Assembly: GCA_963699255.1 (NCBI GenBank)
Contig: OY969425.1
Coordinates: 960,001-992,000, forward strand
Origin: an uncultured bacterium
GTDB lineage: Bacteria; Margulisbacteria; WOR-1; CAVSGV01
Direction: 5' to 3'
DNA length: 32,000 bases
Below, one piece after another: positions 6,863 through 30,047 of this stretch. The notes beneath the pieces were generated by a model. The model did no database searches. It had not been told where the DNA came from and saw only the letters and a program-made list of their open reading frames with translations. The position numbers and the translations under genes are program-made. Within the stretch, counting starts at the first letter, position 1. Every line of letters begins with the position of its first letter.

Positions 6863-6898
6863 ATTCGGAGCTGAATTTAATAAAGGGGGCTGGTTAAT

Positions 6899-11936: not shown

Positions 11937-14171
11937 ATGTCAGAATCAAGCGTCATGCTTCCGTTGTTAGGGGCTCTGGAGAACAATCTTCTGTGGATGG
12001 TATTCGGGTCGGCGATAATCGCGCTTCTTTACGGGGCGTACCTCGCCTGGAAGGTCTTGAAGGCTCCGCAGGGGTCGCAGGCCATGATCGACGTGTCAAA
12101 AGCCATCCAGCAGGGTTCGGCAGCTTACCTCGCCCGCCAGTTCAAAGTGATGGGCATCATCATATTTTTACTGACCATAGGTCTGTATTTAATGTACAGG
12201 CCGATCTATACCAATAATCCGTTCCTGCCGATCGGCATAGCGGGCGCTTTCCTGCTGGGTTCCATGGCATCGGCCGGCGCAGGTTTTGTGGGAATGAACC
12301 TGGCCGTACGCGCTAATGTGCGCGTGGCCAACGCGGCCCTGACCAGCTATAAGAAAGCCCTGGAGATCGCCTTCCAGGCCGGCACAATATCCGGCATGTT
12401 CACCGTAGGGCTTGGATTGCTGGGAGCCACCATCATATTCATGATATTCAAGCAGGATGCCATGAAGGTCCTTATCGGTTTCGGTTTCGGCGGCTCGCTG
12501 GTCGCTCTCTTTATGCGCGTCGGCGGCGGCATCTTCACGAAAGCGGCTGACGTAGGCGCAGACCTGGTCGGCAAAGTCGAGAAGAACATTCCGGAAGACG
12601 ATCCGAGGAACGCGGCGGTCATAGCCGACAACGTCGGCGACAACGTCGGCGACTGCGCCGGCATGGCAGCCGACGTTTTTGAGAGCTACGAAGTGACCCT
12701 GGTCGCGGCGATCATACTTGGCGCGGGGCTCCTGCTCGACAGCGGCTTCAAGGCGTTCTACGGGGCGGGCGCGGCGGCCATGGCTCTGAAGCTTATCCTT
12801 TATCCTCTATTGGTCCGAGCGGTCGGGGTTTTCGCGTCGATCATCGGGACACTGCTGGTGCGCGGCAAAGACACCGAGGAGATCGGCGATCCCATGCAAT
12901 CGATCAATTTCGGCTTCTGGGCGGCGTCCATAACCGCGACGATCGGTTTCGGCGCGGTCAATTATTTTTATCTTAAGGATTGGCGATTTTTCTTCGCGAC
13001 CCTGACCGGGATCATCCTGGCGATCGTGATCGAATGGATAACGAATTACTTCACTCACACGTCAAACCGTCCGGTCCAGGAAACAGCTTACGCGTCAAAG
13101 ACCGGCCCGGCGACACTCCTGCTTTCAGGTTTCGGCCTGGGCAAGGAATCTTCTGTCTGGGCGATCCTTGCCATTGCCGCGACTATATTCGTATCAACAA
13201 GCATTTTCGGCGGGAACATAGGGCTCTCGGCTTACGGCATAGCCCTGGCGGGACTGGGGCTTTTAACGACCACCGGCTTTATCCTGGCCGAAGACACTTT
13301 CGGGCCGATCTCGGATAACGCCAGCGGAATTTTTGAAATGTCCGGCGCCAACAAAGGTGCCGGCAAACGCGCGCAGGAAATAACGATCAAGCTCGACGCG
13401 GTCGGGAACACGACCAAAGCCCTGACAAAAGGTTTTGCCATAGCCACGGCGGTCATCGCGGCCATCGCGCTGTACAGGTCATTTATCTCCGAAGGCGGGC
13501 TCCTGCTAACGGGCATTCAGCTCAATATGCCGGATGTATTCATCGGCCTGCTGATAGGAGGCGCTGTGCCGTTCCTTTTCTCTTCGCTATTGATAAACGC
13601 GGTCGGACGCTCCGCTTTCTTCGTGGTCGAAGAGGTCCGTCGCCAGTTCAGGGAGATCCCCGGGATCATGGAAGGCAAAAATAAGCCGGAGTACGACAAG
13701 TGCGTGGACATCGTGACCATCGCCGCGCAGAAAGAGCTGGTCGGTCCGGTAATAATCGGGGTTTGCACCCCTATCGCCGTCGGTTTCGGCCTGGGCGTCG
13801 CGGCGCTCGGCGGCTATCTGGCGGGCACTATACTTGTCGGACAGCTTCTCGCGGTCATGCTCTCGAACTCCGGTGCGATCTGGGATAACGCCAAGAAGGT
13901 AATTGAGATGGGCGCGCACGGGGGCAAAGGCAGCGAGTGTCACAAGGCGGCGGTCATCGGCGATACGGTCGGCGATCCATTCAAAGATACGGCCGGTCCG
14001 GCGCTCAACCCGTTGATCAAGGTAATGAACCTGGTATCGATCCTGATCCTGCCGCTTCTTCTTCTCGGATTTGATATAAAGATCCGTTTGGGCATCGTGA
14101 TCGTTTGCGTTCTTCTGATCATTTTCGCGCTCTGGCTGTCGAAAAAAGAAGGGATAATGACCGAGCGATAA
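11937..14171 (+). CDS. hppA: Membrane-bound proton-translocating pyrophosphatase, K+-independent type
   Basis: 744 aa, polytopic. Canonical motifs GGGIFTKAADVGADLVGKVE and DNVGDNVGDCAGMAADVFESY. GNTTKA (Lys where K+-dependent enzymes have Ala) indicates the K+-independent subfamily. Confidence 0.95.
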   Translation: MSESSVMLPLLGALENNLLWMVFGSAIIALLYGAYLAWKVLKAPQGSQAMIDVSKAIQQGSAAYLARQFKVMGIIIFLLTIGLYLMYRPIYTNNPFLPIGIAGAFLLGSMASAGAGFVGMNLAVRANVRVANAALTSYKKALEIAFQAGTISGMFTVGLGLLGATIIFMIFKQDAMKVLIGFGFGGSLVALFMRVGGGIFTKAADVGADLVGKVEKNIPEDDPRNAAVIADNVGDNVGDCAGMAADVFESYEVTLVAAIILGAGLLLDSGFKAFYGAGAAAMALKLILYPLLVRAVGVFASIIGTLLVRGKDTEEIGDPMQSINFGFWAASITATIGFGAVNYFYLKDWRFFFATLTGIILAIVIEWITNYFTHTSNRPVQETAYASKTGPATLLLSGFGLGKESSVWAILAIAATIFVSTSIFGGNIGLSAYGIALAGLGLLTTTGFILAEDTFGPISDNASGIFEMSGANKGAGKRAQEITIKLDAVGNTTKALTKGFAIATAVIAAIALYRSFISEGGLLLTGIQLNMPDVFIGLLIGGAVPFLFSSLLINAVGRSAFFVVEEVRRQFREIPGIMEGKNKPEYDKCVDIVTIAAQKELVGPVIIGVCTPIAVGFGLGVAALGGYLAGTILVGQLLAVMLSNSGAIWDNAKKVIEMGAHGGKGSECHKAAVIGDTVGDPFKDTAGPALNPLIKVMNLVSILILPLLLLGFDIKIRLGIVIVCVLLIIFALWLSKKEGIMTER

Positions 14172-14234: not shown

Positions 14235-15470
14235 TTAATGGTTCACGCCGTTTTCTTTCTTAAATTGAGCGACCAGAGCCGGGATATCCAGATACGCGCG
14301 CATCGAATCCGTACAGCAGAAGAATTTTTTCGCGTTCTTATCCACGTATTTTTTTATCGCGGGGAAATCGTCCTGAAGTTTCAGCAGCTGGACCATCGCC
14401 TCTTTCATTAAGAACATCTTGATAAGTTTCTTTTCGTCTCCCGTGGCGCCGTCGTGATCAAAAAAGCGGGACAGGGGCTTTTCCAATACCTGATAATAGA
14501 AAGGATCCACAAAACCCCTGAAATGTTGCATGGTGTCGATCTTTGCCGCCGCAACATACGAATATGTCCTGAGGACAAGCGGATCGTCCGCCCATGTAAG
14601 CGCTTTCAGGTTCTTTATATATTGTCCGTATTCACCCGCAAAACAGACGTATTTATCCACATTAGATAAATAGGCTGCTCCAATCTCCTTTTTTACGTCC
14701 GAGCCGGCTTCAGACATCGCCTGATTAATGACTCTCGAGACTTTCCTGTCCGCGATATTCCCTTCTATGATCGCAATGTCATTATTTATTGCCCGCTCTC
14801 GCAGATAATTGAATGATTCCATGGTGAACAGCCACTCGTTCTGGTAAGGCTTAAGGGACGTCTCCCCTGTCCAAATATGAAAGAACGAATACAGGAATAT
14901 ATCCCTCAGGAATCTTTTTTCAGGGTTGGTCAACATTTCCGTTAACAGGGCGAATTCTTCCGCGTCTTTTATTGCACCCCTTGCATACTGGAGATTTTTC
15001 TGGGCTATCATCATATTACCACAACCCTCGTTTTTTATGGGATCGCTGATATCAAAAATATGCTTCGAGATCGCGCTCAAGAGTTCGTTATCATCCTGAA
15101 TGGCAATGTTTCGTGCCTCCTTGATGAGCATGGCGCTTTTTGCAAAAGCAAGGAATTCAAAAGGATTCTTTGTGATCTTTAATAATGTCTTTATCGCCGA
15201 AAGGTGGTCGGCAACATCAACGGAAACATCCACTATTATCGATTTCTGCGGCTTAATTTTGCATATGTGATCGAAGTTCTGATGGCTGCCGATCCCTAAA
15301 TATATCCCTTTTGTCTCCCTCTGACCATAAGTAAATCCGGACAATCTTTCATTGGAATGGATGTCTCCAAATCCCCCGCTTTCAAACCCCACCGTACATC
15401 CCGGCGGACGTATCTTCTTAATATAAGCGGGAGCCTTTATTCTCGTAACCGCCTTTGAAAATATGCTCAT
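14235..15470 (-). CDS. Hypothetical 411-aa cytoplasmic protein, no confident family
   Basis: Long ORF with normal composition and no TM or signal peptide. N-terminal ...YLGIGSHQNFDHICKIKPQKSIIVDVS... has a Rossmann-like strand-loop-helix flavour. Function unknown. Confidence 0.6.
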   Translation of the reverse strand: MSIFSKAVTRIKAPAYIKKIRPPGCTVGFESGGFGDIHSNERLSGFTYGQRETKGIYLGIGSHQNFDHICKIKPQKSIIVDVSVDVADHLSAIKTLLKITKNPFEFLAFAKSAMLIKEARNIAIQDDNELLSAISKHIFDISDPIKNEGCGNMMIAQKNLQYARGAIKDAEEFALLTEMLTNPEKRFLRDIFLYSFFHIWTGETSLKPYQNEWLFTMESFNYLRERAINNDIAIIEGNIADRKVSRVINQAMSEAGSDVKKEIGAAYLSNVDKYVCFAGEYGQYIKNLKALTWADDPLVLRTYSYVAAAKIDTMQHFRGFVDPFYYQVLEKPLSRFFDHDGATGDEKKLIKMFLMKEAMVQLLKLQDDFPAIKKYVDKNAKKFFCCTDSMRAYLDIPALVAQFKKENGVNH

Positions 15471-15635: not shown

Positions 15636-15887
15636 ATGAGCGGATCAATAAGCGGATTATCCTTAAATTCCAGTACCGCAATATCAAGTGCGCAAGACGA
15701 GACGAATTTATTCGATGCGATCAACAGCATCGCCACAAGTTCATCGTCAGATTCGGATTCGGATGCTATTGATTCCATGGCTTCATCCCTGAATAGTTCA
15801 GCGCCATCCAGCACAAGCACAAGCGGTACCAGCTCTGTATCAAATCCCTTTTCAACTTCGGGGACGATAACGAACACCATAGCTTAG
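15636..15887 (+). CDS. Hypothetical Ser/Thr/Asp-rich acidic small protein (83 aa), no Cys
   Basis: ATG 15636 lies 9 nt after SD AAGGAG. MSGSISGLSLNSSTAISSAQDETNLFDAINSIATSSSSDSDSDAIDSM... is low complexity. The mirror ORF on the other strand has a worse SD. Could be non-coding. Confidence 0.35.
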   Translation: MSGSISGLSLNSSTAISSAQDETNLFDAINSIATSSSSDSDSDAIDSMASSLNSSAPSSTSTSGTSSVSNPFSTSGTITNTIA

Positions 15888-15944: not shown

Positions 15945-15973
15945 TTTACATTGCTTATTTTATTCACTATAAT
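15945..15973 (+). promoter_or_regulatory. Near-consensus sigma-70 promoter positioned for a leaderless rpoN mRNA
   Basis: TTTACA (15945-15950), 17-nt spacer, TATAAT (15968-15973), then GCCCAC, then ATG at 15980. No SD is present. Confidence 0.5.
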
Positions 15974-15979
15974 GCCCAC

Positions 15980-17347
15980 ATGAACAAACTGGGGCTCGGA
16001 TATGAACTTAACCTCTCAAATACGCTTGAGCTGATGCTCTCGCCGCGCATGATCCAGATGCTCAGGATGCTGAACCTCTCCTATGTGGAGCTTGTGGAGG
16101 AGATAGAGAAAAGATCCGAAGAGAACGTGATGCTGGAGCTGGAACACCCGGACAGGCTGCTGGAATACCTGAAGCACATAAGCACCGAGAGGATATCTAA
16201 AAAGGAGATCCCTTATGAAGAGCTGCCGGGAATAGAGAGCCTGGCCGACACGGCAGAGACCCTTGAGGACCACCTCCTCAAGCAGCTTGATCTTGAAGAG
16301 CTGAATGAAAAGAAAAGAAAGATCGCTGAATTCATCATAGGCAGTATCGACACGAGAGGTTATCTGCAGAATTACGAGCAGATCAGCGGAGCGATAAAAA
16401 AGGAACTGGGCGCGAGCCAGAATGAGATAGACAGCACGCTGGAGGTGATCCAGGATCTGGAGCCGGATGGCGTGGGAGCAAGGGCCCTGAAGGAATGCCT
16501 CCTTATACAGGTAAGGGAATACAACTTTGAAAGCGAAGAACTGGAAGATTTGCTGACAAAGGCGATAGAGGACCACCTGGATGACTTCGCGGAAAAGAAA
16601 TTCGACAGGATCGCGAAAGCGCTGAAGATCGGAAGGGACGGCGCCGAAAAGCTCGCCGAGTTCATAAAGAACAACCTCAATCCCAACCCGGGATCGATGT
16701 TCGCCGAGAGGCTTCCCTGCGTGATCCCTTCTTTTTCGATCGTAAAAGAAAAGGACAAATACAAGGCCGTTAACCTGGAAAAGACCTACGGCCCGTCGCT
16801 CAAGATCAGTCCCGTGTATGAAAAAATGCTGAGAGACCCGAAAACCGACGCGAAGAGCCTTGAATTCCTGAAGGAAAAACTTGAAGCGGCAAAGGATTTC
16901 CTGGAGAACATCGCGAAACGGCATGAAACGATCGAAAAAATACTTGACCTGATAATCGCGGCCCAGAGCGGATCTTTTGAAGGCGGCAAGCTTAAGTTGA
17001 ACCCTCTTATGCAAAAGAACATCGCAAAGGACCTCGGCCTTCACCCGTCCACCATCTCAAGGGCGATCGCGAACAAATATATACAGACCCCCCGCGGGAT
17101 CATCCTCCTGAAAACCCTCTGCCCCCGGGAGATAAAAGGCACGACCGGCGAAAAGATCCATAAGCTTATACAGGTCATCATCGATTCGGAAGACAAAAAA
17201 GATCCGCTGACGGACGAGGAGATAGCCGAAAAGCTGAAGAGCGACGGCCTGTACCTTGAGAGAAGGACCGTGGCTCTGTACAGGAAAAAGCTGGGATTTG
17301 AAATAGCTTCGAAAAAGAGTGAAATTTTAAGTCGGAACATACGATAA
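15980..17347 (+). CDS. rpoN: RNA polymerase sigma-54 factor
   Basis: 455 aa. Region I LELMLSPRMIQMLRMLNLSYVELVEEI, HTH ...HPSTISRAIANKYIQTPRG..., RpoN box RRTVALYRKKLG. Confidence 0.93.
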   Translation: MNKLGLGYELNLSNTLELMLSPRMIQMLRMLNLSYVELVEEIEKRSEENVMLELEHPDRLLEYLKHISTERISKKEIPYEELPGIESLADTAETLEDHLLKQLDLEELNEKKRKIAEFIIGSIDTRGYLQNYEQISGAIKKELGASQNEIDSTLEVIQDLEPDGVGARALKECLLIQVREYNFESEELEDLLTKAIEDHLDDFAEKKFDRIAKALKIGRDGAEKLAEFIKNNLNPNPGSMFAERLPCVIPSFSIVKEKDKYKAVNLEKTYGPSLKISPVYEKMLRDPKTDAKSLEFLKEKLEAAKDFLENIAKRHETIEKILDLIIAAQSGSFEGGKLKLNPLMQKNIAKDLGLHPSTISRAIANKYIQTPRGIILLKTLCPREIKGTTGEKIHKLIQVIIDSEDKKDPLTDEEIAEKLKSDGLYLERRTVALYRKKLGFEIASKKSEILSRNIR

Positions 17348-17398
17348 TATAGCGTCAAAACACCTATTCGCAAGGCCTTGACGGAAGCGGGAGAAAAA

Positions 17399-18832
17399 AT
17401 GACCGACGGTAAAGCAGACATATTGATAGTTGAAGATGAAAAAAACGTAAGAGCCGCGCTCTCCCTTGCTCTCTCGGATAAATACAACCTCTTTTCGGCA
17501 TCCGACGGGAAAAAGGCCCTCGAAATGATCTTTGAAAGGAACATCGACCTGGTGCTTCTGGACATAAGGCTTCCCGAAGTGAACGGGATGGACGTCCTTA
17601 AACAAATAAAGGACATGAGCAGCTCGATCCCGGTGATAATGCTTACGGCAGTCAGGACCGTTGATTCCGCCGTATCAGCCATGAAGCTCGGCGCCTACGA
17701 TTACGTGATAAAGCCTTTTGACATAAACGAACTGATGGCGCTGATCGAAAAAGCGCTTGAAAAAAGGAACCTTGAAAAGGAGAACGTTTTTCTGAAGAAC
17801 GAGCTTGAGAAGACCGGCGGCTTTGAAAAGATCATAGGCATGAGCGAGAAAATGAGGGAAATTTTCAAGCTGATAAAAAGCGTGGCGAGAGGCGACGCAA
17901 CGGTGCTTATCACAGGAGAGTCCGGGACCGGCAAGGAACTTGTCGCGAGGGCGATACACCACCAGAGCAAGAGGGCAAAAAAACTGTTCGTCCCGGTGAA
18001 CTGCGCGGCGATCCCCGAGAACCTTCTCGAGTCCGAGCTCTTCGGCTATGAAAAGGGCGCTTTTACGGGGGCGTATGAGCGGCGTCTGGGTAAATTCGAG
18101 ATCGCCAACGGCGGAACGATATTCCTGGATGAGATAAGCACAATGCCGCTCCCAATGCAGGCAAAGCTACTCAGGGTCCTTCAGGAGCGCGTCATAGACA
18201 GGGTGGGCGGCACGATCCAGGTAGAGATCGACGTGAGAGTGATCTCCGCCACGAATTCGGACCTTAAACAGGAGGTCGACAACAAAAAATTCAGGGGCGA
18301 CCTGTTCTACAGGCTTAACGTGATCCCGATGGTCATCCCTCCGCTCAGGGAGCGAACGGAAGACATACCTCTGCTGGTGAACTATTTCCTTGATAAGTAC
18401 AACAAGGAGTTCGGCAAAAAGATAAAAGAGTTCGACGCTGATGCCATGCACGTTCTCACTTCCTATCCCTGGCCGGGCAACGTCAGGGAACTGGAGAACC
18501 TGATAGAGCGGCTCGTGGTCCTGAGCGACAGGAACATTATCACAAAAGACAAGCTCCCTCCCGAGATATACAAAAAGCTGATGGACGAACACGCGAAAAG
18601 ATTCGAAATGGACTTCATAAAACAAGCCATACAAAAATCCAACTTGAACGAACGGCAGCTGAAAGCGATAGAACTCGTCAAAAGCCAGGGGAAGATAACG
18701 AAGCAAACCTATATCAAGCTGACCAACACCCCGAAAACCACTGCTTTCAGGGACCTGCATACGCTCGTAAAGCTCCACATATTGACCCAGAAAGGCATCG
18801 GAAAGAGCTCCTGCTACACGCTCTCGGATTAG
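17399..18832 (+). CDS. Sigma-54-dependent response regulator (NtrC-type bEBP) with atypical winged-helix C-terminal domain
   Basis: Start at ATG 17399 (SD GGGAG; the track uses an upstream TTG). REC domain (VEDE..., [16 protein letters not shown]). Intact AAA+ core: [36 protein letters not shown]. The C-terminus [59 protein letters not shown] is not a Fis-type HTH. Confidence 0.9.
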
Positions 18833-18854
18833 CGCCCGGAATCCAGTCCACTTA

Positions 18855-18895
18855 GGACCGCAAACGGACCGCAAAACGGACCGCAAAACGGAAAC
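18855..18895 (+). repeat. Tandem direct repeat GGACCGCAAA(A)C x3 plus a partial unit
   Basis: GGACCGCAAAC (18855-65), GGACCGCAAAAC (18866-77), GGACCGCAAAAC (18878-89), GGAAAC (18890-95). Non-coding, 23 nt after the bEBP stop. Confidence 0.85.
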
Positions 18896-18930
18896 TCATC
18901 ATATTTACCCGCGTCCATTATGGCTTTATT

Positions 18931-18946
18931 TGGTATGATAATTGCT
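18931..18946 (+). promoter_or_regulatory. Putative sigma-54 (-24/-12) promoter
   Basis: TGGTATGATAATTGCT has GG and GC at exact consensus spacing (TGGYA-N6-TTGCT). It lies 54 nt upstream of ATG 19000. Confidence 0.55.
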
Positions 18947-18999
18947 ATATAATAGATGGAACCAATGTTTAGGCACGATCCTATAAAGGAGTGATCTAC

Positions 19000-19401
19000 A
19001 TGGCAAGGCTTGAGCCCGGTGAGCAGAATGAACAAAAAGAGATGAACCCGAAGTTCCTTTCCGTGATCCTTGACAGGGATTTCCAGAAACAGCAACTCGA
19101 GGAAAAAGACAGATCAAAGGTGGAGCTGTTCGAGCGCGGGCTCGCGTGTGAGCTATTAACGTCCGATACCATCGACAGGTCCGTGGAAAAGATAGTGAAA
19201 ATGGCCCTTGCCTGCGAATTCGGCGCGGAGCTGGTAACAAAACCGGCCGCAAAAAAAATGGTCTCCGTTATAAGCCGCGGCATCCTGTCGGACAGGGATC
19301 TGAGGAGATCCGCTCTTATCATAGCCGACAGGTTCGCGACCAGCAGGAAGACCAAGATCGTGCCTCTTAGGGGGAAGGGAAAGTCCGTGATAAATGGCTG
19401 A
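19000..19401 (+). CDS. Hypothetical 133-aa protein, translationally coupled to the degenerate bEBP
   Basis: ATG 19000 behind SD AAAGGAG (the track starts at an upstream GTG). MARLEPGEQNEQKEMNPKFLSVILDRDF...; predicted helical and soluble. Its 3' end overlaps the next start by 8 nt. Confidence 0.6.
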   Translation: MARLEPGEQNEQKEMNPKFLSVILDRDFQKQQLEEKDRSKVELFERGLACELLTSDTIDRSVEKIVKMALACEFGAELVTKPAAKKMVSVISRGILSDRDLRRSALIIADRFATSRKTKIVPLRGKGKSVING

Positions 19402-20698
19402 TATTAAACCAGTAATACTTGTCGTCGATGACGAAACGAACATAAGAGAATCTTTCACCCTCATTCTGGAGAAAGAATTCAATGTGATCACCGCCGCCTC
19501 AGGAGAAGCCGCGCTTAAAAGGATCATAGACGAGAAGGTCGACCTGGTATACCTCGACATAAGAATGCCGGGAATGAACGGCATGGAAACGCTTAAGAGG
19601 ATAAAAGAAATAGACAGCAGCATTGAAGTTATAATGGTCACCGCACTGAATGACGTTGGAGGCGCGGCCGCCGCGATCAAGCTCGGGGCCAAAGATTACA
19701 TCGTAAAGCCTTTCGACGTGAAGGATATCCTGAACAGGACGAGAAGCTTTGTGATAAAAGCCCAGACAAAAGCCATAAAGCCGCCAATGGAGGATGAACT
19801 GATAGGCAACAGCAGGCAGATCCAGAACATAAGGAAAGTTGTGGAGCAGCTATCGCAAAAGGGCTCTTCCGTACTGATCATCGGGGAGAAGGGACTCGAA
19901 GCCGAACAGATCGCCGCGATCGTGAACGGCGAATCCGAAAAGGAACTGAAGAAGCTGGACGCGTCTTCCGATCTCGGAAGTTGGGTCCTTTTTGGGCGCG
20001 AGAAGGGTTCTTTCACGTCTGAGTTCGAAAAAGAAGCCGGCATGCTGGAGGAAGCGAACGGTGGCATACTGTTCATAAGGAACATAGAACTCCTTCCCAT
20101 GGACGTTCAGAAAAAGCTGGGACAGGCGCTTTCAAAAAAAGAATTTTCCCGCGACGGCTCCTCTGCGGCGATACACGTGGACTTGAGGGTTATAGCGGAA
20201 ACATCCGCAGATCCGGCTGAACTCATAAAAGAAGGCAGCTTTGACAGGGACCTTTATAACGCCATAAGCAGAACGGTGATCGAGCTGCCTCCGCTCAGGA
20301 TGAGGGAAAGCGACATACCGATACTGATAAACCACTATGTTGATAAATTTTCGATCAAATACGACAGGCAATTAAAAGTATCCCCCGAAGCCCTTGAAAT
20401 ACTCGCGGGCTATCCATGGCCCGGGAATCTGGCCGAGCTGTCGAACGTTATAGAGGCGATCATGCTGTCGAGCAAAAAGGAAGTGCTGGAACCGGACGAT
20501 CTCCCCCTGGATATCCTGATAAAAAGCCCCGCCGGAGGAAGGCCATTCACGACGCTTGAGAATATCGAAGGAAAGTTCGAAAAAGCCCATATCCTTAGCG
20601 TTTATAAAAAAGCCGGGGAAAGCAAAGAGAAGGCTTCGGCAATGCTCGGTATAGGGCTGAAGACCCTGGAATCCAAGCTTGAATCGATCAACGCCTGA
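19394..20698 (+). CDS. bEBP-like response regulator with degenerate AAA+ domain (predicted ATPase-dead, sigma-54-contact loop lost)
   Basis: REC domain intact (VVDDE, LVYLDIRMPGMNG, KPF) and Fis-type HTH intact (KEKASAMLGIGLKTLESKL). Colinear with the neighbouring bEBP, but Walker A GESGTGKE is GEKGLEAE, GAFTGA is GSFTSE, Walker B FLDEI is FIRNI, and sensor-[10 protein letters not shown] is GNLAELSN. Confidence 0.85.
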   Translation: MADIKPVILVVDDETNIRESFTLILEKEFNVITAASGEAALKRIIDEKVDLVYLDIRMPGMNGMETLKRIKEIDSSIEVIMVTALNDVGGAAAAIKLGAKDYIVKPFDVKDILNRTRSFVIKAQTKAIKPPMEDELIGNSRQIQNIRKVVEQLSQKGSSVLIIGEKGLEAEQIAAIVNGESEKELKKLDASSDLGSWVLFGREKGSFTSEFEKEAGMLEEANGGILFIRNIELLPMDVQKKLGQALSKKEFSRDGSSAAIHVDLRVIAETSADPAELIKEGSFDRDLYNAISRTVIELPPLRMRESDIPILINHYVDKFSIKYDRQLKVSPEALEILAGYPWPGNLAELSNVIEAIMLSSKKEVLEPDDLPLDILIKSPAGGRPFTTLENIEGKFEKAHILSVYKKAGESKEKASAMLGIGLKTLESKLESINA

Positions 20699-21354
20699 TG
20701 GCCTCAAGACTTATCCCGATAGACCTCCTTATCCTTGACTTTGACGGCACGCTTACGGACTCGATCCCGCCCGCGGTCGCCGCGATACAGAAAATGCTCA
20801 AAAAACTGGGCCTTCCCTACAGATCAAAGAAAGAGATCAATGAACACGTCGGCTACGGAGAGCCCCCGCTTCTTGAAGGGTCAACAGGTTCCAAAGACCC
20901 GGAGCTGCTGAAGAAAGCGATGAGCACCTATGAGAAGATATATATGAAAGAAGGGATCAAAAAAGTCACATTATATCCCCACGTGAAGGGATTCCTTGAA
21001 TATTTCAAAGATAAGCCAAAAATTATCGTTTCCAACAAAAAAGATCTTTTCATAAAAATGATACTCAAGAACCTGGGGTTGACGAAGTATTTTAAAGAAA
21101 TTCATGGAGGGGATACCCTGCCCTGCCTTAAGCCGGACCCGCACGCGATAAACATCATGATAAAGAAATACCGGGTTTCGAGGAATCGGGTGTTGTTCAT
21201 CGGGGACATGACGGTGGACATCGAGACCGGAAAGAACGCGCATGTGCGCACATGCGCTGTGACCTACGGATTTGACAGCGTGAGCAAATTAAAGAAGCAC
21301 AAGCCTGATATCCTGATCGATAATCTGATGGAGCTGAAGGATCTGATAGAATGA
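20698..21354 (+). CDS. HAD-superfamily hydrolase, phosphoglycolate-phosphatase-like
   Basis: Motif I ILDFDGTLTDS, motif II IVSNK, motif III/IV K...FIGDMTVDIETGKNA. TGATG overlap with the preceding gene. Confidence 0.85.
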   Translation: MASRLIPIDLLILDFDGTLTDSIPPAVAAIQKMLKKLGLPYRSKKEINEHVGYGEPPLLEGSTGSKDPELLKKAMSTYEKIYMKEGIKKVTLYPHVKGFLEYFKDKPKIIVSNKKDLFIKMILKNLGLTKYFKEIHGGDTLPCLKPDPHAINIMIKKYRVSRNRVLFIGDMTVDIETGKNAHVRTCAVTYGFDSVSKLKKHKPDILIDNLMELKDLIE

Positions 21355-21355
21355 A

Positions 21356-21440
21356 TGCCCAGAGTCGGACTCGAACCGACATGACCTATTCGGTCAAGGG
21401 ATTTTAAGTCCCTCGCGTCTACCAATTCCGCCATCCGGGC
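21356..21440 (-). tRNA. tRNA-Leu (anticodon UAA)
   Basis: Hand-folded cloverleaf: acceptor GCCCGGA/TCTGGGC plus discriminator A, D arm GCG-GAATTGGTAGA-CGC, anticodon arm AGGGA-CTTAAAA-TCCCT, long variable arm GACC-GAAT-AGGTC, T arm GTCGG-TTCGAGT-CCGAC. CCA is not encoded. Confidence 0.9.
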
Positions 21441-23589: not shown

Positions 23590-24285
23590 TCACCATATCA
23601 AAATTGAAACAATTGCCCCCAAAGCGAGGAAAGGCGCGAACGGAATATAATCCTCCCTGTTCAGCTTTTTCAGCAGGATTAGCGCTATGCCCGCTGCGGC
23701 TCCGGTCAGCGAAGCGAAGAGAACGGATAGAAGCGTCCTCTCGATGCCGAGATTTGCCCCGAGCATGATAAGCAGCTTTATATCCCCGTCGCCCATCGCC
23801 TCTTTTTTTAACGCGTATTTTGCCGCCGACGAGATCAGGAACATGAACGAAAAACCGAAACAAGCGCCGGTCAGGCTTTCGATAAAGTTGCCGCTATAAG
23901 CCGAATACGCGAGCCCCGTGCCGATCCCGATCAGCATCAGGAAATCGGGGATCACCATGTGTTCAATGTCAATAAAAGAAATAAGGACCAGCAGGATCGA
24001 GAATATTAAAATAGCGGCGAACCGGACTGAAAAACCCACCTTTAGATAGAAGATCAATAACAGCGCCGCGGTCAGGGCTTCAACAACAGGATAGCGGATG
24101 GATATCTTTTCCCCGCAATATCTGCAGCGGCCGCGAAGGATCAAATAACTGATCAGGGGAATAAGGTCGTAAGCTCTCAAAGTTGACTTGCATTTCGGGC
24201 AGTGGGACGGCGGGTAAACGATCGATCCCTCTTCAGGGATCCTGGAAATACATACGTTCAGAAAACTTCCCGTAACAAGGCCCAA
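23590..24285 (-). CDS. pilD: Prepilin peptidase / N-methyltransferase (A24 family); true start probably upstream of the TTG at 24285
   Basis: GSFLNVCISRIP, Zn-knuckle CPKC...CRYC, catalytic Asp motifs DIEHMVIPD and GDGDIKLL. The frame stays open upstream and encodes the missing half of TM1 (IKVETAAIYSLIIV), but it contains no ATG, GTG or TTG. Confidence 0.9.
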   Translation of the reverse strand: MGLVTGSFLNVCISRIPEEGSIVYPPSHCPKCKSTLRAYDLIPLISYLILRGRCRYCGEKISIRYPVVEALTAALLLIFYLKVGFSVRFAAILIFSILLVLISFIDIEHMVIPDFLMLIGIGTGLAYSAYSGNFIESLTGACFGFSFMFLISSAAKYALKKEAMGDGDIKLLIMLGANLGIERTLLSVLFASLTGAAAGIALILLKKLNREDYIPFAPFLALGAIVSILIW

Positions 24286-24340
24286 AACAATTATTAGTGA
24301 GTAAATCGCTGCCGTTTCTACTTTAATGCCGCCTCTTTTC

Positions 24341-24369
24341 TTGACTTTACCAGCAAATAAATATATATT
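24341..24369 (+). promoter_or_regulatory. Sigma-70-type promoter of the cheY-like/pilB/pilC operon
   Basis: TTGACT (24341-24346), 17-nt spacer, TATATT (24364-24369). Confidence 0.55.
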
Positions 24370-24399
24370 AGTATATCTTTGAAGTCAAATCCGTCTTGA

Positions 24400-24419
24400 C
24401 CTGCCTGCCGGCAGGCAGG
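24400..24419. promoter_or_regulatory. Perfect 20-bp GC-rich palindrome in the operon leader
   Basis: CCTGCCTGCC|GGCAGGCAGG is a perfect inverted repeat, 13 nt upstream of ATG 24433. Its 3' arm overlaps the only purine-rich SD candidate (AGGGG). Confidence 0.8.
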
Positions 24420-24432
24420 GGCAGAAAGATCT

Positions 24433-24786
24433 ATGAAAAAAATCCTAGTGGTGGACGACGAGGAAAGCGTAAGAATCATATTAAAACAGATGCTTGAAAA
24501 GGGCGGCTACAGCGTTGAGGTCAGGAGCGACGGAGAGGAAGCGCTGGGGGCGCTAAAAAGCGGCCGTTTTAACATGCTTATCACCGACATTAATATGCCG
24601 AAAATGAACGGCATTGAACTCCTTTATAAAACAAAAGAAGAGTTCCCCGCCATGCCTGTGGTCTTTATCACCGCTTACGGAAAAGACAAAACGATAATTG
24701 AGGCAATGAAAATGGGGCTCTCCGATAACATAGAAAAACCGTTCAGGATGGATGATGTCCTGAAGACCGTTAAAGACCTCATTTAA
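24433..24786 (+). CDS. Single-domain CheY-like response regulator
   Basis: 117 aa. VVDDE, phospho-acceptor context MLITDINMPKMNG, TAYG, KPF. No output domain. Confidence 0.9.
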   Translation: MKKILVVDDEESVRIILKQMLEKGGYSVEVRSDGEEALGALKSGRFNMLITDINMPKMNGIELLYKTKEEFPAMPVVFITAYGKDKTIIEAMKMGLSDNIEKPFRMDDVLKTVKDLI

Positions 24787-24803
24787 AGAAGGGACGTGAG
24801 CAG

Positions 24804-26501
24804 ATGCCCGTCAGGCAAAGAAAATCCCTCGGGGAAAGCCTTGTTGAACAAAAGATAATATCCGAAGAGCAGCTCAGGACCGCCGTAAAAGAAAGCGAGA
24901 ACAGCGGCGAACCGCTGAGAAAAACGCTTGTAAAGACCGGATTGGTCTCTGAAGAAGACATCTGCGGCTTCTTTGAGGAACAGCTAGGGATCCCCAGAAT
25001 AGACCTGAAAAATTACCTGATAGATCAAAAGATACTTTCGCTGATCCCCGAAAGTCTCGCCAAGAAATACAACCTGATCCCGCTTTTCAAGACCGGGGAT
25101 ACCCTGACGATAGCCACCGCCGACCCTCTAAATGTCGTGGCTATGGATGAGATCAGGATAAAGACCAAAAGCAACATTGAACCCGCGGTGGCGACAGAAA
25201 CCGAAATAAGGAACTCGATAAACCAGTATTACGGGGTAGGCGGCTCCATAGAAGACATCATCAGGAGCATTGACATAAAATCGCTCGCCATAGATGAAGG
25301 CAAGGAAGAAATAGAGCCGGAAAAGCTGAAAAATATCGCGGAAGAAGCGCCCATAATCAAGCTTGTGAACCTGATAATCCTTCAGGCGATAAGGGATAAA
25401 GCTTCCGATATTCACGTGGAACCGGAAGAGGACAGCCTGCAGATCAGGTTCAGGGTCGATGGGATCCTGCATGAGCAGGCCACCATCCCGAAACAGATGC
25501 AGGCGGCGGTGCTTTCCAGAATGAAAATAATGTCCGACATGAACATCGCGACAAAAAGGATCCCTCAGGACGGAAGGTTCAGGTTGAACATAGAGGGAGG
25601 ACAGATAGATATGAGAGTGTCATCCCTCCCGACCATCTTCGGCGAAAATATCGTGATGAGGCTTCTTGATACGACAAGCATACTTATCGGTCTGGAAAGG
25701 CTGGGCTTTGACGAAAAAAACCTTGAAAAATTCAAGTCCCTTATCGTCAAACCGCACGGGATAATCCTTGTTACGGGTCCTACAGGTTCCGGGAAAACAA
25801 CGACGCTGTATTCCGCTTTGAACACCATAAACACTCCGGACAAGAACATCATTACGGTCGAAGATCCGGTGGAATATCAGCTGAAAATGATCCGCCAGTC
25901 GCAGATAAACCCGAAAGCGGGGCTTACTTTCGCGACGGGACTGCGTTCGATCTTAAGGCAGGATCCGGACGTAATAATGGTCGGTGAAATAAGGGACCTG
26001 GAGACGGCTGAAATATCGATCCAGGCGGCGCTGACCGGGCATCTGGTGTTTTCCACCCTTCACACGAACGATGCCCCCAGTTCGCTGACCAGATTGACCG
26101 ACATGGGGGTTGAACCTTTCCTTATATCCTCTTCCGTGATCGGGATCATCGCCCAGAGACTTGTAAGAACGATATGTCCGTCCTGCAAGCAATCCTATAC
26201 CCCTTCCAAGGAGGCCCTTGATGATATAGGCGTAACACTTCCGGAAGGACCGCTGAAGTTCTACAGGGGCGCCGGATGCAAGGTCTGCAAGAACACCGGA
26301 TACAAAGGCAGGATAGGGATATTTGAAATGCTCCTGCTTGATGACAAGATCAGGGACCTGATCCTTGCCAAAACCTCGAGTGCTCAGATAAAACACCTGG
26401 CGCAGGAATCCGGCATGAAGACGCTGCGCGAGGACGGGGTCGTAAAAGTGCTCGCGGGCGCTACCACGATAGATGAAGTTATCAGGGTAACTCAGGAATA
26501 A
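24804..26501 (+). CDS. pilB: Type IV pilus assembly ATPase (PilB/GspE family)
   Basis: 565 aa. N-terminal T2SSE_N/MshEN-like domain, Walker A GPTGSGKTTTLY, VGEIRD, HLVFSTLHTND, tetracysteine CPSC...CKVC. Confidence 0.93.
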   Translation: MPVRQRKSLGESLVEQKIISEEQLRTAVKESENSGEPLRKTLVKTGLVSEEDICGFFEEQLGIPRIDLKNYLIDQKILSLIPESLAKKYNLIPLFKTGDTLTIATADPLNVVAMDEIRIKTKSNIEPAVATETEIRNSINQYYGVGGSIEDIIRSIDIKSLAIDEGKEEIEPEKLKNIAEEAPIIKLVNLIILQAIRDKASDIHVEPEEDSLQIRFRVDGILHEQATIPKQMQAAVLSRMKIMSDMNIATKRIPQDGRFRLNIEGGQIDMRVSSLPTIFGENIVMRLLDTTSILIGLERLGFDEKNLEKFKSLIVKPHGIILVTGPTGSGKTTTLYSALNTINTPDKNIITVEDPVEYQLKMIRQSQINPKAGLTFATGLRSILRQDPDVIMVGEIRDLETAEISIQAALTGHLVFSTLHTNDAPSSLTRLTDMGVEPFLISSSVIGIIAQRLVRTICPSCKQSYTPSKEALDDIGVTLPEGPLKFYRGAGCKVCKNTGYKGRIGIFEMLLLDDKIRDLILAKTSSAQIKHLAQESGMKTLREDGVVKVLAGATTIDEVIRVTQE

Positions 26502-26512
26502 GATAATTCAGC

Positions 26513-27727
26513 ATGCCAACTTTTTCCTATAAAGCGAGAGACGAAACCGGCAAGCCGATCTCCAGCATAATGGAAGCGTCAAATAAAGATGCCCTTGCCT
26601 CAAGGCTGCAAAAGCTCAAGTACACGGTCATCTCAATTTCCGAAAAAGCGATCCCGTTCACAATAGATAAGTTCCTGCGAAGGTTCACCAGAGTAAAGAT
26701 CAATGACCTGGTAATGTTCAATGTTCAACTTGCCAATATGATAGGCGCCGGGATCCCGTTGCCATCGAGCCTTATGACCCTTTCGGAACAGATCGAGAAC
26801 GAAAGATTAAAGGATGCCGTAAGCGACGTATATAACGAGATAAAGGGAGGCCAGACCTTCGCTGACTCCTTAAAAAAACATCCCGATATTTTCCCCCCGC
26901 TTTTCACGAACATGATACATGCCGGCGAGGTCGCCGGGAACCTGGATGAAATATTGAACAGGCTGGCGACATTCGTGGAACACGAATCGGAGCTGAGGCA
27001 AAAAATAACCACGGCGCTGTTTTATCCGATGATCCTTGCCGTATTCGGCACTGCCGTCGTGGTGTTAATTATTGTTACTATACTTCCCTCTTTCGCCAAA
27101 ATATTCATCGAAGCTAATGTTCCGCTGCCGCTGCCGACAATGGTGCTTTATAACCTGAACCTGGTAATAAGGGCTTACTGGAAGCATATTATTGTGGCGA
27201 TTGCAGCGCTGTTCTTTCTCGCGAGGTGGTACAAAAGGACCCCGACCGGGAAATATTACCTGGACAGCGCCATGCTCAATATCCCTGTCTGGGGAAAACT
27301 GATAAGGGAGTCAACGGTCGCCCGCCTCACAAGGACACTTGCGTCGCTCATTTCAGCCGGCGTCCCGATGCTGCAGTCACTTGAGGTAACGGAGAAGACA
27401 ATAGACAACTCGATAATCTCCGGGGTTCTGAAGGACGTATATTCATCGGTAAGCAAAGGCGAGACTATTTCAGAACCGCTAAGGAAAAGCGGCCAGTTCC
27501 CGGCTATGCCCATCCACATGATAGCCGTTGGTGAAGAAACCGGTGCACTGGATACAATGCTCAACAAAGTTGCCGATTATTACGACATGGAAACAGAATA
27601 CAGCATAAAAAGGATCACTTCGCTTCTTGAGCCTATTTTTCTGGTCATTATCGGCGGTATGGTGGGATTCATTTTTGCATCTATACTGCTGCCCATATTC
27701 CAGATGGTGAAGACGCTGAAACACTAG
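26513..27727 (+). CDS. pilC: Type IV pilus platform protein (PilC/GspF family)
   Basis: 404 aa. Two GspF-type repeats, three TM segments, typical N-terminus MPTFSYKARDETGK.... Confidence 0.93.
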   Translation: MPTFSYKARDETGKPISSIMEASNKDALASRLQKLKYTVISISEKAIPFTIDKFLRRFTRVKINDLVMFNVQLANMIGAGIPLPSSLMTLSEQIENERLKDAVSDVYNEIKGGQTFADSLKKHPDIFPPLFTNMIHAGEVAGNLDEILNRLATFVEHESELRQKITTALFYPMILAVFGTAVVVLIIVTILPSFAKIFIEANVPLPLPTMVLYNLNLVIRAYWKHIIVAIAALFFLARWYKRTPTGKYYLDSAMLNIPVWGKLIRESTVARLTRTLASLISAGVPMLQSLEVTEKTIDNSIISGVLKDVYSSVSKGETISEPLRKSGQFPAMPIHMIAVGEETGALDTMLNKVADYYDMETEYSIKRITSLLEPIFLVIIGGMVGFIFASILLPIFQMVKTLKH

Positions 27728-27827
27728 AGGAGCTAGAAGAACTAGATGTTAAGAGGTGAAAAGGTTGAGAAGAAAAAGAGGAAGGACCTCTTTACCTCTT
27801 CCACTTTTAGCTCCCCTAGCTCTTCTA
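27725..27827. repeat. Purine-arm/pyrimidine-arm imperfect palindrome between pilC and pilT
   Basis: The left end TAGAGGAGCTAGAAGAACTAG (27725-27745, which includes the pilC TAG stop) matches the reverse complement of 27807-27827 at 16/21. The left half is almost pure A/G and the right half almost pure C/T. Confidence 0.5.
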
Positions 27828-27831
27828 ATTC

Positions 27832-27859
27832 TTGCGTATTATTATTACGGTAGTATAAT
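27832..27859 (+). promoter_or_regulatory. Possible sigma-70 promoter for pilT
   Basis: TTGCGT (27832-27837), 16-nt spacer, TATAAT (27854-27859). There is no obvious SD before ATG 27880. Confidence 0.4.
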
Positions 27860-27879
27860 GTTTTTCGTCTCTGGTACAT

Positions 27880-28926
27880 ATGGAAATAAACAGCTTACTT
27901 AAAATAGTAGTTGAAAAAAATGCTTCGGATCTGCTCATCGTATCCGGAACAGCTCCTGTACTCAGGATCAACGGGGCGCTTTCTCCCATAGATTCCGCGA
28001 GACTCTCTGAAAGCGAAGCAAAATCCCTGATCTACGGTCTTCTCACTCCGAAACAGATAGAAACCTTCGAGAAAACAAAGGAACTTGACTGCGGTTATGA
28101 ACTTAAAGGCGTATCAAGGTTCAGGGTCAACGTTCACTATCAAAGAGGCACGGCAGCAGCGGCACTGAGGCTTATCCCTTCCGAGATCCCGACGCTCGAG
28201 GACTTAAGGCTCCCAAATGTTGTTGCCGATTTCGCCAACCTTGAGCGGGGGCTGGTGCTTGTGACCGGACCCACGGGATCCGGGAAAACCACAACGCAGG
28301 CGTGCATGGTGGACATTATCAATGCGAGCAGGAGCCGCCACGTGATAACCATAGAAGACCCCATCGAATACGTCCACGGAAACAAAAGAAGCATTGTGGA
28401 ACAAAGAGAGGTCGGACTCGACACCGAATCCTTTGATTCCGCCTTGAAGAGAGTGCTAAGGCAGAACCCTGATGTCATACTGATAGGGGAAATGAGAGAC
28501 CTGGAAACCATACAAACCGCTATAACAGCCGCGGAAACAGGCCACCTTGTCATATCCACCCTTCATACGAACGACGCTGTGCAGGCGGTAGACCGCATTA
28601 TCGATGTTTTCCCGCCATACCAGCAGACCCAGGTAAGGATGCAGCTTTCGCTGTCCCTGCAGGGGATAATGGCCCAGCAGCTTATACCGAGAATAGACAA
28701 GAAGGGACAGATAGTCGCCACAGAGGTCCTTATTGCCACTTCGGCCGTCAGGAATTTGATCAGGAAAGGCACCACCCAGGAGCTATATTCCACACTGGAC
28801 ATAGGCGCGAAATTCGGGATGCAGAGCATGGATGCCTGCCTTAAGAATCTATACAAGAACAAGTTGATATCATACGACGAAGCTTTCGCGCACGCGATAA
28901 ACCAGGAGCATTTCGAGAAACTTTGA
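27880..28926 (+). CDS. pilT: Twitching-motility retraction ATPase
   Basis: 348 aa. GPTGSGKTTT, IGEMRD, GHLVISTLHTNDA, PilT-type AVRNLIRKG motif. Confidence 0.93.
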   Translation: MEINSLLKIVVEKNASDLLIVSGTAPVLRINGALSPIDSARLSESEAKSLIYGLLTPKQIETFEKTKELDCGYELKGVSRFRVNVHYQRGTAAAALRLIPSEIPTLEDLRLPNVVADFANLERGLVLVTGPTGSGKTTTQACMVDIINASRSRHVITIEDPIEYVHGNKRSIVEQREVGLDTESFDSALKRVLRQNPDVILIGEMRDLETIQTAITAAETGHLVISTLHTNDAVQAVDRIIDVFPPYQQTQVRMQLSLSLQGIMAQQLIPRIDKKGQIVATEVLIATSAVRNLIRKGTTQELYSTLDIGAKFGMQSMDACLKNLYKNKLISYDEAFAHAINQEHFEKL

Positions 28927-28949
28927 CATTTCGTCCCGTTATAATATAA
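28922..28949 (+). promoter_or_regulatory. Consensus sigma-70 promoter of the major pilin gene
   Basis: TTGACA (28922-28927, overlapping the pilT stop), 16-nt spacer, TATAAT (28944-28949). Followed by SD AAAGGAGGGGGTGA. Confidence 0.6.
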
Positions 28950-28974
28950 TGTAAAAAAAGGAGGGGGTGAAAAA

Positions 28975-29427
28975 ATGAAAACAAGCAAAGGCTTTACTCT
29001 TATCGAGTTACTCATAGTCATGGCGGTCATAGCCATATTGATCGCTATAGCGATCCCTAGCTTCAGAGGCATGCAGCAGGAAGCAAGGAAGACAAAGGCT
29101 CAGGGCGACGTCAGGGTAATAAAGATTGCTATCGAATCTTACTACAAGAATCATAACAATCAATACCCGGCTACTGGAGTCGACTACCAGACAACACTGC
29201 AAAACGCTGTACCAAGGATACTTGAAGGAACGTTGAACGATCCTTTCAGCGTAGGTGCAAATGTGCCTTATCAGTATGCTCTAAGCGGTGCAGACCCAAC
29301 GAGTTCCGATTACTATATCATATGGTCAGTCGGACCGAATCAATCAGCTGTACCGGCCACAGTGTCAACATCAGGCATTGTTACGGCAACAAATGAGGTG
29401 ATCTGGGAATCGAACGGTCACATGTAA
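28975..29427 (+). CDS. Type IV pilin / GspG-like pseudopilin (probable major subunit)
   Basis: Class III signal MKTSKG|FTLIELLIVMAVIAILIAIAIPSF with Glu at +5. The globular part, with ...DPFS...YQYAL...YYIIWSVGPN, resembles GspG/PilA-type subunits. Confidence 0.88.
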   Translation: MKTSKGFTLIELLIVMAVIAILIAIAIPSFRGMQQEARKTKAQGDVRVIKIAIESYYKNHNNQYPATGVDYQTTLQNAVPRILEGTLNDPFSVGANVPYQYALSGADPTSSDYYIIWSVGPNQSAVPATVSTSGIVTATNEVIWESNGHM

Positions 29428-29457
29428 TCACGGAATGTCTTTAAAGACATGTTGATT

Positions 29458-29492
29458 TAAAGGGAGCTGACTAGTCGGCTCCCTTTCTTTTT
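29458..29492 (+). terminator. Rho-independent terminator after the pilin gene
   Basis: Stem AGGGAGCTGAC / GTCGGCTCCCT (29461-29484) followed by TTCTTTTT. Confidence 0.8.
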
Positions 29493-29641: not shown

Positions 29642-29675
29642 GGTAATTGATTTTCCTTTGTGTTATCATTTCTTC

Positions 29676-30035: not shown

Positions 30036-30047
30036 GGAGCTCACACA

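Follow-up and report, generated by a model that had tools for sequence, protein, structure and literature searches.

We analysed a compact gene cluster built around the alternative sigma factor sigma-54, which occupies positions 15980-21354 of a 32,000-nucleotide (nt) stretch of contig OY969425.1 (assembly GCA_963699255.1, positions 960,001 to 992,000 of the forward strand) from an uncultured bacterium of the Margulisbacteria, WOR-1 lineage. This whole stretch is referred to below as the window. The cluster contains, in this order and all on the plus strand, rpoN, a bacterial enhancer-binding protein (bEBP) gene with intact catalytic motifs, an upstream repeat array, a predicted sigma-54 promoter, a gene for a small helical protein, a gene for a catalytically degenerate bEBP paralogue (the dead bEBP or pseudo-bEBP) and a HAD hydrolase gene. 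An earlier note on this DNA had listed these features, and the open reading frame (ORF) listing, Pfam and direct reading of the sequence located every one of them, co-oriented, where the note had placed it. Since the organism is uncultured, the whole analysis is one of sequence comparison.

The rpoN gene (15980-17347, +) encodes a sigma-54 factor of 455 amino acids (aa) in which all three Pfam sigma-54 domains were identified, Sigma54_AID, Sigma54_CBD (8e-46) and Sigma54_DBD (4e-39). The adjacent gene (17399-18832, +) encodes the active bEBP, composed of a receiver (REC) domain, an AAA+ domain (Pfam Sigma54_activat, PF00158, 1.7e-73), a lid and a C-terminal Fic-like winged helix. Its Walker A (GESGTGKE), GAFTGA, Walker B (DE), arginine-finger region and sensor II (GNVREL) are all intact, in agreement with its earlier description as a fully intact activator, and the protein thus has the AAA+ sigma-54 interaction domain with all five motifs by which a bEBP is defined. 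The usual C-terminal Fis-type helix-turn-helix (HTH; HTH_8) is absent and a winged helix stands in its place, with matches to DeoR/IclR HTH domains at E ~0.01 and a resemblance to the C-terminal region of the Fic family protein 8cil in the PDB (E 9e-4). This is a variant of the DNA-binding domain that leaves the core definition of a bEBP unharmed. By the established mechanism, a bEBP switches on a sigma-54 promoter after phosphorylation of its receiver.

Downstream of the predicted promoter, the first gene (19000-19401, +) encodes a small helical protein of 133 aa that belongs to an unannotated family; it starts at the ATG at 19000, behind an AAGGAG box, and not at the GTG at 18991. It overlaps the dead bEBP gene by 8 nt, and the dead bEBP gene overlaps the HAD gene by 1 nt (TGATG), both overlaps being read directly from the sequence as the note had given them. 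The dead bEBP (19394-20698, +; 434 aa) comprises an intact receiver, a degenerate AAA+ core, a lid and a degenerate Fis-type HTH, as assigned with Pfam and a motif table. It is 36% identical to the active bEBP overall and about 50% identical in the receiver. The claim that every catalytic motif of this paralogue is destroyed was borne out: Walker A reads GEKGLEAE, which fails GxxGxGK (family consensus GExGxEKE, with Glu for the P-loop Gly), GSFTSE stands for GAFTGA in a loop that is unconserved or deleted across the dead-bEBP family, the Walker B DE is replaced by RN, the arginine-finger Arg is replaced, and sensor II is GNLAEL instead of GNVREL. The receiver, by contrast with this degenerate core, retains VDDE, LDIRMP (D54), MVTA and VKPF and matches Pfam PF00072 at 3e-29.

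More than 1,400 relatives of the dead bEBP were found in the databases, and the closest 120, on which the motif table was built, originate from metagenome bins assigned to Margulisiibacteriota, Saganbacteria and WOR-1. Of these 120 homologues, 115, down to 37% identity, share degenerate versions of Walker A, GAFTGA, Walker B and sensor II, while the receiver residues DD, D and K are invariant in 120/120 and the Thr is changed to Ser in one. Because the degenerate motifs are shared and the receiver residues kept, the dead bEBP is, on this comparison, an old and conserved pseudo-ATPase family rather than a recent casualty.

To place the cluster in context, about 40 related loci (numbered with the prefix L) were assembled and annotated uniformly, five of them gathered through the dead bEBP and 35, as species-level genome loci, through the small protein. 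They are labelled Margulisiibacteriota, Saganbacteria or WOR-1, with one labelled Omnitrophota; some come from metagenome bins, and their taxonomic labels may be wrong. The earlier note had suggested testing whether the order rpoN, bEBP, dead bEBP, HAD is conserved in related genomes, an order unique to this contig being counted against its reading. The order is not unique: about 29 of the 40 loci have rpoN, a bEBP with intact motifs, the small ORF and the dead bEBP in one orientation, with rpoN directly 5' of the activator in about 29. The HAD gene is no core part of it and occurs only in the clade of the window (the window and four other distinct loci, L001/L008, L007 and L009). The small ORF followed by the dead bEBP was found in essentially every locus that was long enough (Saganbacteria/WOR-1-type), mostly with an overlap of 4-26 nt. 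The other side of the module always carries S1, DivIC, (enolase) and pilD, and then pilT/pilB.

The predicted sigma-54 promoter, TGGTATGATAATTGCT (18931-18946, +; TGGTAT-N5-TTGCT), was identified by pattern matching, which also returned TGGTATGATAATTGC at 18931-18945, and its predicted start site lies at about 18957. It fits the sigma-54 consensus TGGCAC-N5-TTGCW, with the GG and GC doublets ten bases apart. The bare -24/-12 pattern is not above chance in the window (3 matches against 4.05 expected), so the promoter call depends on conservation in relatives. A GG-N10-GC element is present 30-60 nt 5' of the small ORF in every locus with an adjacent rpoN and activator, and it is also kept in several loci without an adjacent rpoN. 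It has the canonical form TGG[CT]A-N6-TTGCT in most loci and CGG or AGG variants in four (L001/L008, L007 and L003). A weight matrix built from 32 module sites was scanned over both strands of 588 kb of the window and related genomes, and a single site outside the module reached the score range of the module sites (at least 16 bits).

Upstream of the promoter lies a candidate activator site of four GGWCCG units with a period of 11-12 nt (18844-18892, +), three of them near-perfect copies of GGACCGCAAA(A)C and one degenerate. Tandem Repeats Finder delimited 3.2 copies of the unit GGACCGCAAAAC at 18855-18892 (period 12, 96% matches), which corresponds to the three tandem repeats that had been described at 18855-18895; the degenerate fourth unit (cAGTCC, 18844-18854) aligns with GGTCC in relatives. 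The centre of the array is about 85 nt 5' of the predicted start site. Within the clade of the window, the repeat units, in register, and the promoter block are conserved in five other loci, while the spacer, the leader and the flanks diverge, a footprint pattern expected of real sites.

Support for control of this promoter by the adjacent activator comes from the co-variation of the DNA-binding domain of the activator with the upstream element. The seven loci with a winged-helix activator have two to five GGACCG-type units arranged as direct repeats and no TGCAC-type half-sites, whereas the 23 loci whose activator carries an HTH_8 domain (45 bits) have at least one TGCAC-type half-site (one to five), forming GCAC-N8-GTGC dyads, and no GGACCG. 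There are no exceptions to this pairing, and of the 34 GCAC-N8-GTGC dyads that occur in the 588 kb, 28 are found immediately 5' of the small ORF. A domain swap matched by a site swap at one promoter indicates that the adjacent activator binds there and controls that promoter, and we regard this as strong indirect evidence for activator binding approximately 65-100 nt 5' of the predicted start.

The window contains 21 copies of GGACCG, about as many as chance would give, and they cluster only at 18855-18883. The non-module site in the module score range, TGGCAATATTATTGCT (6689-6704, +; weight-matrix score 18.3), is a sigma-54-type element upstream of a 41-aa hydrophobic ORF (6738-6863) and a gene for a 621-aa amino-acid permease with a C-terminal PII domain (6899-8764). 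A second target of the activator in the window was rejected, because no other GGACCG cluster exists and the 6689 element has no such repeats ahead of it, so that a different activator would be required there. No terminator-like site was predicted on the plus strand between 15400 and 21600, hence none between the activator gene and the small ORF, and some read-through from upstream is therefore possible.

Taken together, synteny, the conserved promoter and the repeats that co-vary with the activator domain make it likely that the activator acts through the sigma-54 promoter on the small protein and the dead paralogue. The cascade put forward in the earlier note, in which the active bEBP switches on a non-catalytic copy of itself, is thus upheld in its wiring.

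The two paralogues are under different constraints, as seen from mean pairwise identities computed domain by domain over 26 matched loci. In the dead bEBP the receiver is the best conserved part (69.6%, against 63.5% in the active protein), and the linker (34.5% against 55.9%), the AAA+ core (36.7% against 73.8%) and the lid (43.3% against 65.6%) are all less conserved than their active counterparts; its HTH stands at 42.2%. In a survey of the dead-bEBP architecture in 36 loci, the ORF is open and the receiver and lid are complete in 36/36. The AAA+ core is trimmed in many of these loci and all but missing from L033 (247 aa) and L037 (270 aa); in L033 the small gene has been kept, as have rpoN, the activator and the promoter. 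An HTH-like C-terminus is present in 33/36, having been lost in L017, L024 and L033. The receiver residues of the alpha-1 contact face read SISFLI in 22 of 25 loci, the other three showing single conservative changes, whereas the corresponding residues of the active bEBP differ by clade (SMSMML vs NVALLA). A c-di-GMP (cyclic di-GMP)-binding role like that of FleQ or VpsR was also considered, and by-eye inspection found no matching motif at the start of the AAA+ domain. In L024, L033 and L035 the frame of the dead bEBP runs into a tRNA gene, and the C-terminal peptides end in ...GRNRTGMAYSxEGF; the tRNA may be a recombination-prone boundary at which the HTH was lost.

The small protein has no sequence match in Pfam, NCBIfam or the PDB. 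Its AlphaFold2 model is a helical bundle with a core pLDDT (predicted local distance difference test) of about 90 and 73 overall, and no fold match to the model was found in the PDB. All of its 386 homologues are hypothetical and unnamed, and the family accounts for just 70 cluster representatives among 1.84 billion proteins. A core of 70 residues shows 65% mean identity, similar to the receiver of the dead bEBP. A distant branch is homologous to it (hhalign probability 99.2%, E 9e-20) and was located between flhA and a FliA/WhiG-like sigma factor gene in 3/3 contexts examined. There, an overlapping three-gene set follows flhA and comprises the small-protein homologue (~130 aa), a 69-aa ORF and a short FliA/WhiG-like sigma factor (L043 6001-7176, L045 2111-3294 and one ENA contig). 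In a Termititenax-type branch the small gene stands alone behind a sigma-70 -10 element, beside a peptidase gene and with no bEBP nearby. The small protein is therefore the more widely distributed component, tied to alternative sigma systems in two separate settings.

About nine loci have no rpoN and activator at the module position. The -24 GG has decayed in L030 and L034, and no GG-N10-GC element was found in L004/L036. In the clades other than that of the window (L002, L011-L028 and others), a conserved sigma-70-like promoter, TTGATT-17-TGcTAAAGT, encloses the proximal dyad approximately 20-45 nt 5' of the -24 element. In L004/L036 (5560-5600), the dyad persists in the spacer of TTTCAA-17-TGcTATAAT, the -10 of which is a perfect TATAAT. 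These arrangements suggest that the clades whose activator has a Fis-type HTH possess tandem sigma-70 and sigma-54 promoters sharing one operator. The operon probably receives a sigma-70 input as well, which would be its sole input in some lineages. In the clade of the window, a perfect TATAAT follows the -12 TTGCT by 1-2 nt and a conserved CTTTATT precedes the -24 TGG (18925-18954); a weak sigma-70 promoter, below the scan thresholds, may overlap the sigma-54 promoter here.

Our findings, on balance and by a modest margin over the contrary, favour a phylum-wide sigma-54 cascade that has a receiver-domain pseudo-activator and a small partner protein as its output. In this model, a sigma-70-type promoter would express rpoN and the REC-AAA+ activator, and the winged helix of the activator would bind the GGWCCG direct repeats about 65-100 nt 5' of the start site. 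With its receiver phosphorylated, presumably by an unlinked donor, the activator would turn on the promoter at 18931-18946, which would drive the translationally coupled small protein, the pseudo-bEBP and, in this clade only, the HAD hydrolase. The pseudo-bEBP, presumably unable to hydrolyse ATP or to contact sigma-54, would serve as a phosphorylation-switched binding protein acting via its receiver (and lid), with the small protein as its likeliest partner. The pair would then relay the signal or feed back on it, and would act neither as an ATPase poison nor as a DNA competitor.

The receiver-partner part of this model is more tentative than the cascade, and we give it somewhat less than even chances. 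It is proposed because selection keeps the receiver, with its phospho-site and alpha-1 face, together with the lid, while the AAA+ core and the HTH decay. The nearly constant alpha-1 residues in a conserved receiver point to a partner that is unchanged across the phylum. The earlier note had offered a hexamer poison and an enhancer competitor as possible roles. The first is unlikely as a general mechanism, because the ring-forming part of the protein, its AAA+ core, is the most dispensable. The second is unlikely because in the clade of the window the DNA-binding domains of the two paralogues are different, a Fic-like winged helix and a Fis-type HTH below the Pfam cut-off, and the latter is degenerate and has disappeared from three lineages. 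A simple sink for the kinase of the active protein is likewise disfavoured by alpha-1 contact residues that do not co-vary between the paralogues, and a shared kinase for both receivers, at one point the leading idea, was rejected for the same reason.

Several observations weigh against the model as a whole. As the earlier note had reported, no histidine kinase accompanies the two receivers: the window ORFs that were scanned carry no Pfam kinase domain, and when 489 ORFs of 200 aa or more from the window and the 40 loci were put through a crude screen for H/N/G-box motifs, one weak candidate emerged, in L009. Phosphorylation of the receivers is thus assumed from the intact phospho-site residues. 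The HTH is retained in most lineages, and a DNA-binding role is possible. The small protein stands alone in Termititenax-type relatives, and its function cannot depend strictly on the pseudo-bEBP. Finally, the pair of small ORF and dead bEBP is apparently expressible without sigma-54, via the sigma-70-like promoter, as the four loci that lost the -24 GG (L004/L036, L030 and L034) indicate.

The best-surviving alternative, which we consider unlikely, is that the pseudo-bEBP is an atypical EBP acting as a transcription factor, binding DNA via its Fis-type HTH and regulating sigma-70 promoters as VpsR, TyrR, HupR and NtrX do; among its targets could be the operon in which it lies or the type IV pilus genes nearby. 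The earlier note had listed a sigma-70-type regulator as a third possible role. The dead bEBP shares with this group an NtrC-family fold without GAFTGA, and its layout of REC, AAA+ without GAFTGA and HTH is that of the described atypical EBPs (PMC6158489). NtrX (5m7n) and VpsR (7v2b) are among its PDB matches, the HTH-like C-terminus is widespread, and the module always lies beside pilD and pilT/pilB. In addition, the dyad persists where the -24 GG has been lost, in the sigma-70-like spacer of L004/L036, which argues that some HTH protein still uses the site. Yet the HTH of the dead bEBP scores 18-21 bits (18.4 in the window) against a Pfam cut-off of 22, lacks the R-N-T recognition residues found in the HTH of the active paralogue, is only 42% conserved and is missing from three lineages. 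Neither a second conserved operator in the promoter region of the window clade nor a recurrence of the dyad at pilus genes was found, one L033 site excepted. That site, a well-formed GCACAAGAAATTGTGC dyad at L033 12851, is on the far side of pilD, some 360 nt outside the 5' end of that gene. Few copies occur away from the module promoter, and this one could be a further site of binding close to pilus genes.

Rather improbable, in our estimate, is a partner switch by activator mimicry, in which the small protein would inhibit the sigma-54 activator or holoenzyme in the manner of an anti-activator or anti-sigma factor, and the phosphorylated pseudo-bEBP would be a decoy that captures it. The idea is modelled on the PhyR-NepR-sigma-EcfG system of Alphaproteobacteria, which joins a receiver to a degenerate, non-functional copy of part of the transcription machinery, has a small helical protein as partner and is autoregulated by its sigma factor. 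The module analysed here likewise fuses a receiver to a degenerate, non-functional copy of the regulator's own fold, co-translates a small helical protein with it and stands under the predicted control of the sigma-54 factor and activator that it encodes itself. None of the loci surveyed has lost the lid, and dead lids are as similar to active lids (46% identity) as to one another (43%). The homologues of the small protein that lie in overlapping three-gene sets directly 5' of a FliA/WhiG-like sigma factor are arranged like anti-anti-sigma, anti-sigma and sigma operons. The likeness to PhyR is nevertheless one of logic, by analogy and without homology; the decoy there mimics a sigma factor and not an activator. 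Moreover, the fold search with the small protein returned nothing, the protein persists without a nearby bEBP in Termititenax-type genomes, and the AAA+ core, which most anti-activators bind, is the most dispensable part of the pseudo-bEBP.

Direct negative feedback on sigma-54 output, through co-assembly of the dead paralogue with the active bEBP into poisoned hexamers or through drainage of phosphate from its kinase, is still less probable. The two proteins are paralogous (36% identity overall, about 50% in the receiver), the dead copy would be expressed from a promoter under the control of the active one, and co-encoded bEBP paralogues are known to form hetero-oligomers in the case of FleQ and FleT (PMC7277832). 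The dead AAA+ core, however, has diverged at twice the rate seen in its supposed ring partner (37% vs 74% identity) and has been deleted in L033 despite the presence of rpoN, activator and promoter (as well as in L037). Essentially constant alpha-1 residues in the dead protein and clade-variable ones in the active protein are unexpected for one shared kinase, and the pair persists in loci without the sigma-54 promoter. That there is no functional link at all, the dead bEBP being a decaying relic carried along by inherited synteny, was already disfavoured and is very improbable: the whole neighbourhood (S1, DivIC, pilD and pilT) is indeed syntenic across the phylum and the AAA+ core is clearly eroding, but the ORF is open throughout the loci surveyed, the receiver is 70% identical phylum-wide with its phospho-site intact, and the promoter and activator sites are conserved and co-vary with the DNA-binding domain of the activator.

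The remaining features of the region are as follows. The rpoN gene is preceded by a putative sigma-70-like promoter, TTTACA-17-TATAAT (15945-15973, +), with 11/12 matches in a consensus scan. Its TATAAT stops 6 nt before the rpoN ATG, and no Shine-Dalgarno sequence was seen on reading 15945-15982. Because the promoter ends so close to the ATG, the rpoN-bEBP transcript may be leaderless for rpoN translation. Just 5' of rpoN, an ORF of 83 aa (15636-15887, +) with an AAGGAG box ahead of it encodes a Ser/Thr/Asp-rich, low-complexity product without a Pfam match; several small unannotated ORFs likewise lie upstream of rpoN in L001. A DUF7790 protein of 411 aa (14235-15470, -) is encoded between a membrane pyrophosphatase gene (11937-14171) and rpoN and is not kept at this position in related loci.

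At the other end, the product of the last gene of the operon (20698-21354, +) is a HAD-IA hydrolase resembling phosphoglycolate phosphatase (Pfam HAD_2, 5e-32). Against the NCBIfam Gph equivalogs its best score, 166.7 bits with NF009695, is under the cut-off of 225, and its membership of the HAD superfamily holds. A role as phospho-aspartate phosphatase of the receivers was dropped, since the gene occurs in one clade and its product resembles metabolic Gph enzymes. A tRNA-Leu(taa) gene (21356-21440, -; ARAGORN and Rfam) begins 2 nt past the HAD stop codon and forms the 3' boundary of the operon. Beyond it lies a type IV pilus cluster (23590-30612) with pilD (-), a stand-alone receiver gene (24433-24786), pilB, pilC, pilT and two prepilin-like genes; in the window, our scans placed neither a sigma-54 promoter nor an activator site ahead of the pilus genes.

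Parts of this arrangement have precedents. The anti-activator systems PspF-PspA and HrpR/HrpS-HrpV likewise have a sigma-54-dependent operon from which a small protein could exert feedback on the bEBP; HrpR and HrpS, both active and without receivers, are bEBP paralogues that lie side by side. Unlike in those systems, the small protein here has no sequence or fold similarity to PspA or HrpV. A cascade from one bEBP to another is known in Rhodobacter (Cereibacter) sphaeroides, where the master bEBP FleQ and sigma-54 activate an operon with a second bEBP paralogue, FleT, which then works with the first (PMC7277832). FleT, however, is catalytically competent and forms an activating hetero-oligomer with FleQ, whereas the paralogue described here has no catalytic motifs and a dispensable AAA+ core. 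In Cereibacter sphaeroides, RpoN3, AprX and XrpA form a compact, dedicated module, conserved as a set, in which a sigma-54 factor and its cognate activator are combined with a regulatory gene behind a sigma-54 promoter (PMC11999139); the output there is an Xre-family repressor, in contrast to a pseudo-bEBP and a small protein of unknown family.

Sigma-54-independent EBPs without GAFTGA include VpsR, TyrR, HupR, HsfA, PhhR and NtrX. Like the dead bEBP, they are NtrC-family proteins built of AAA+ and HTH domains, most of them with a REC domain as well, and their Walker motifs frequently depart from the consensus (PMC6158489). The Walker B residues are N-D in VpsR and RN, NN, NH or DN in the dead-bEBP family. 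Those proteins are DNA-binding regulators with a functional HTH, most of which bind nucleotide, whereas the family described here has a sub-threshold HTH, absent from some members, and an AAA+ core that is being eroded or has been deleted. The dead-bEBP gene also differs from theirs in being a conserved, predicted sigma-54 target beside rpoN that is always paired with the small protein gene. The earlier note had not recognised the cluster as a described module, and in our literature searches we found no description of a pseudo-bEBP whose AAA+ core is eroding and whose receiver is highly conserved, which is always paired with a small protein from an unknown family, is itself the conserved target of an adjacent sigma-54 factor and activator, and is distributed phylum-wide.

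In the usual account of sigma-54 systems, a single sigma factor is shared by many activators and regulons. The uncultured phylum analysed here, which is sister to the Cyanobacteria, has kept rpoN together with one activator and one predicted promoter as a unit, the conserved product of which would be a pseudo-enzyme copy of the activator together with a protein of unknown family. With promoter, activator site, activator and outputs all identified as candidates, the module offers a wiring diagram that could be reconstituted, and the domain swap with its site swap within one orthologous promoter provides a natural test of the pairing between activator and site. The dead bEBP forms an evolutionary series of a pseudo-enzyme, running from a full through a trimmed to a deleted AAA+ core, with the constraint on the receiver above that of the active paralogue throughout. 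The small protein represents a new superfamily that links the sigma-54 module to an uncharacterised three-gene set beside a FliA-like sigma factor. If true, activator mimicry would be the first sigma-54 counterpart of the PhyR-NepR-sigma-EcfG logic, conserved across a phylum.

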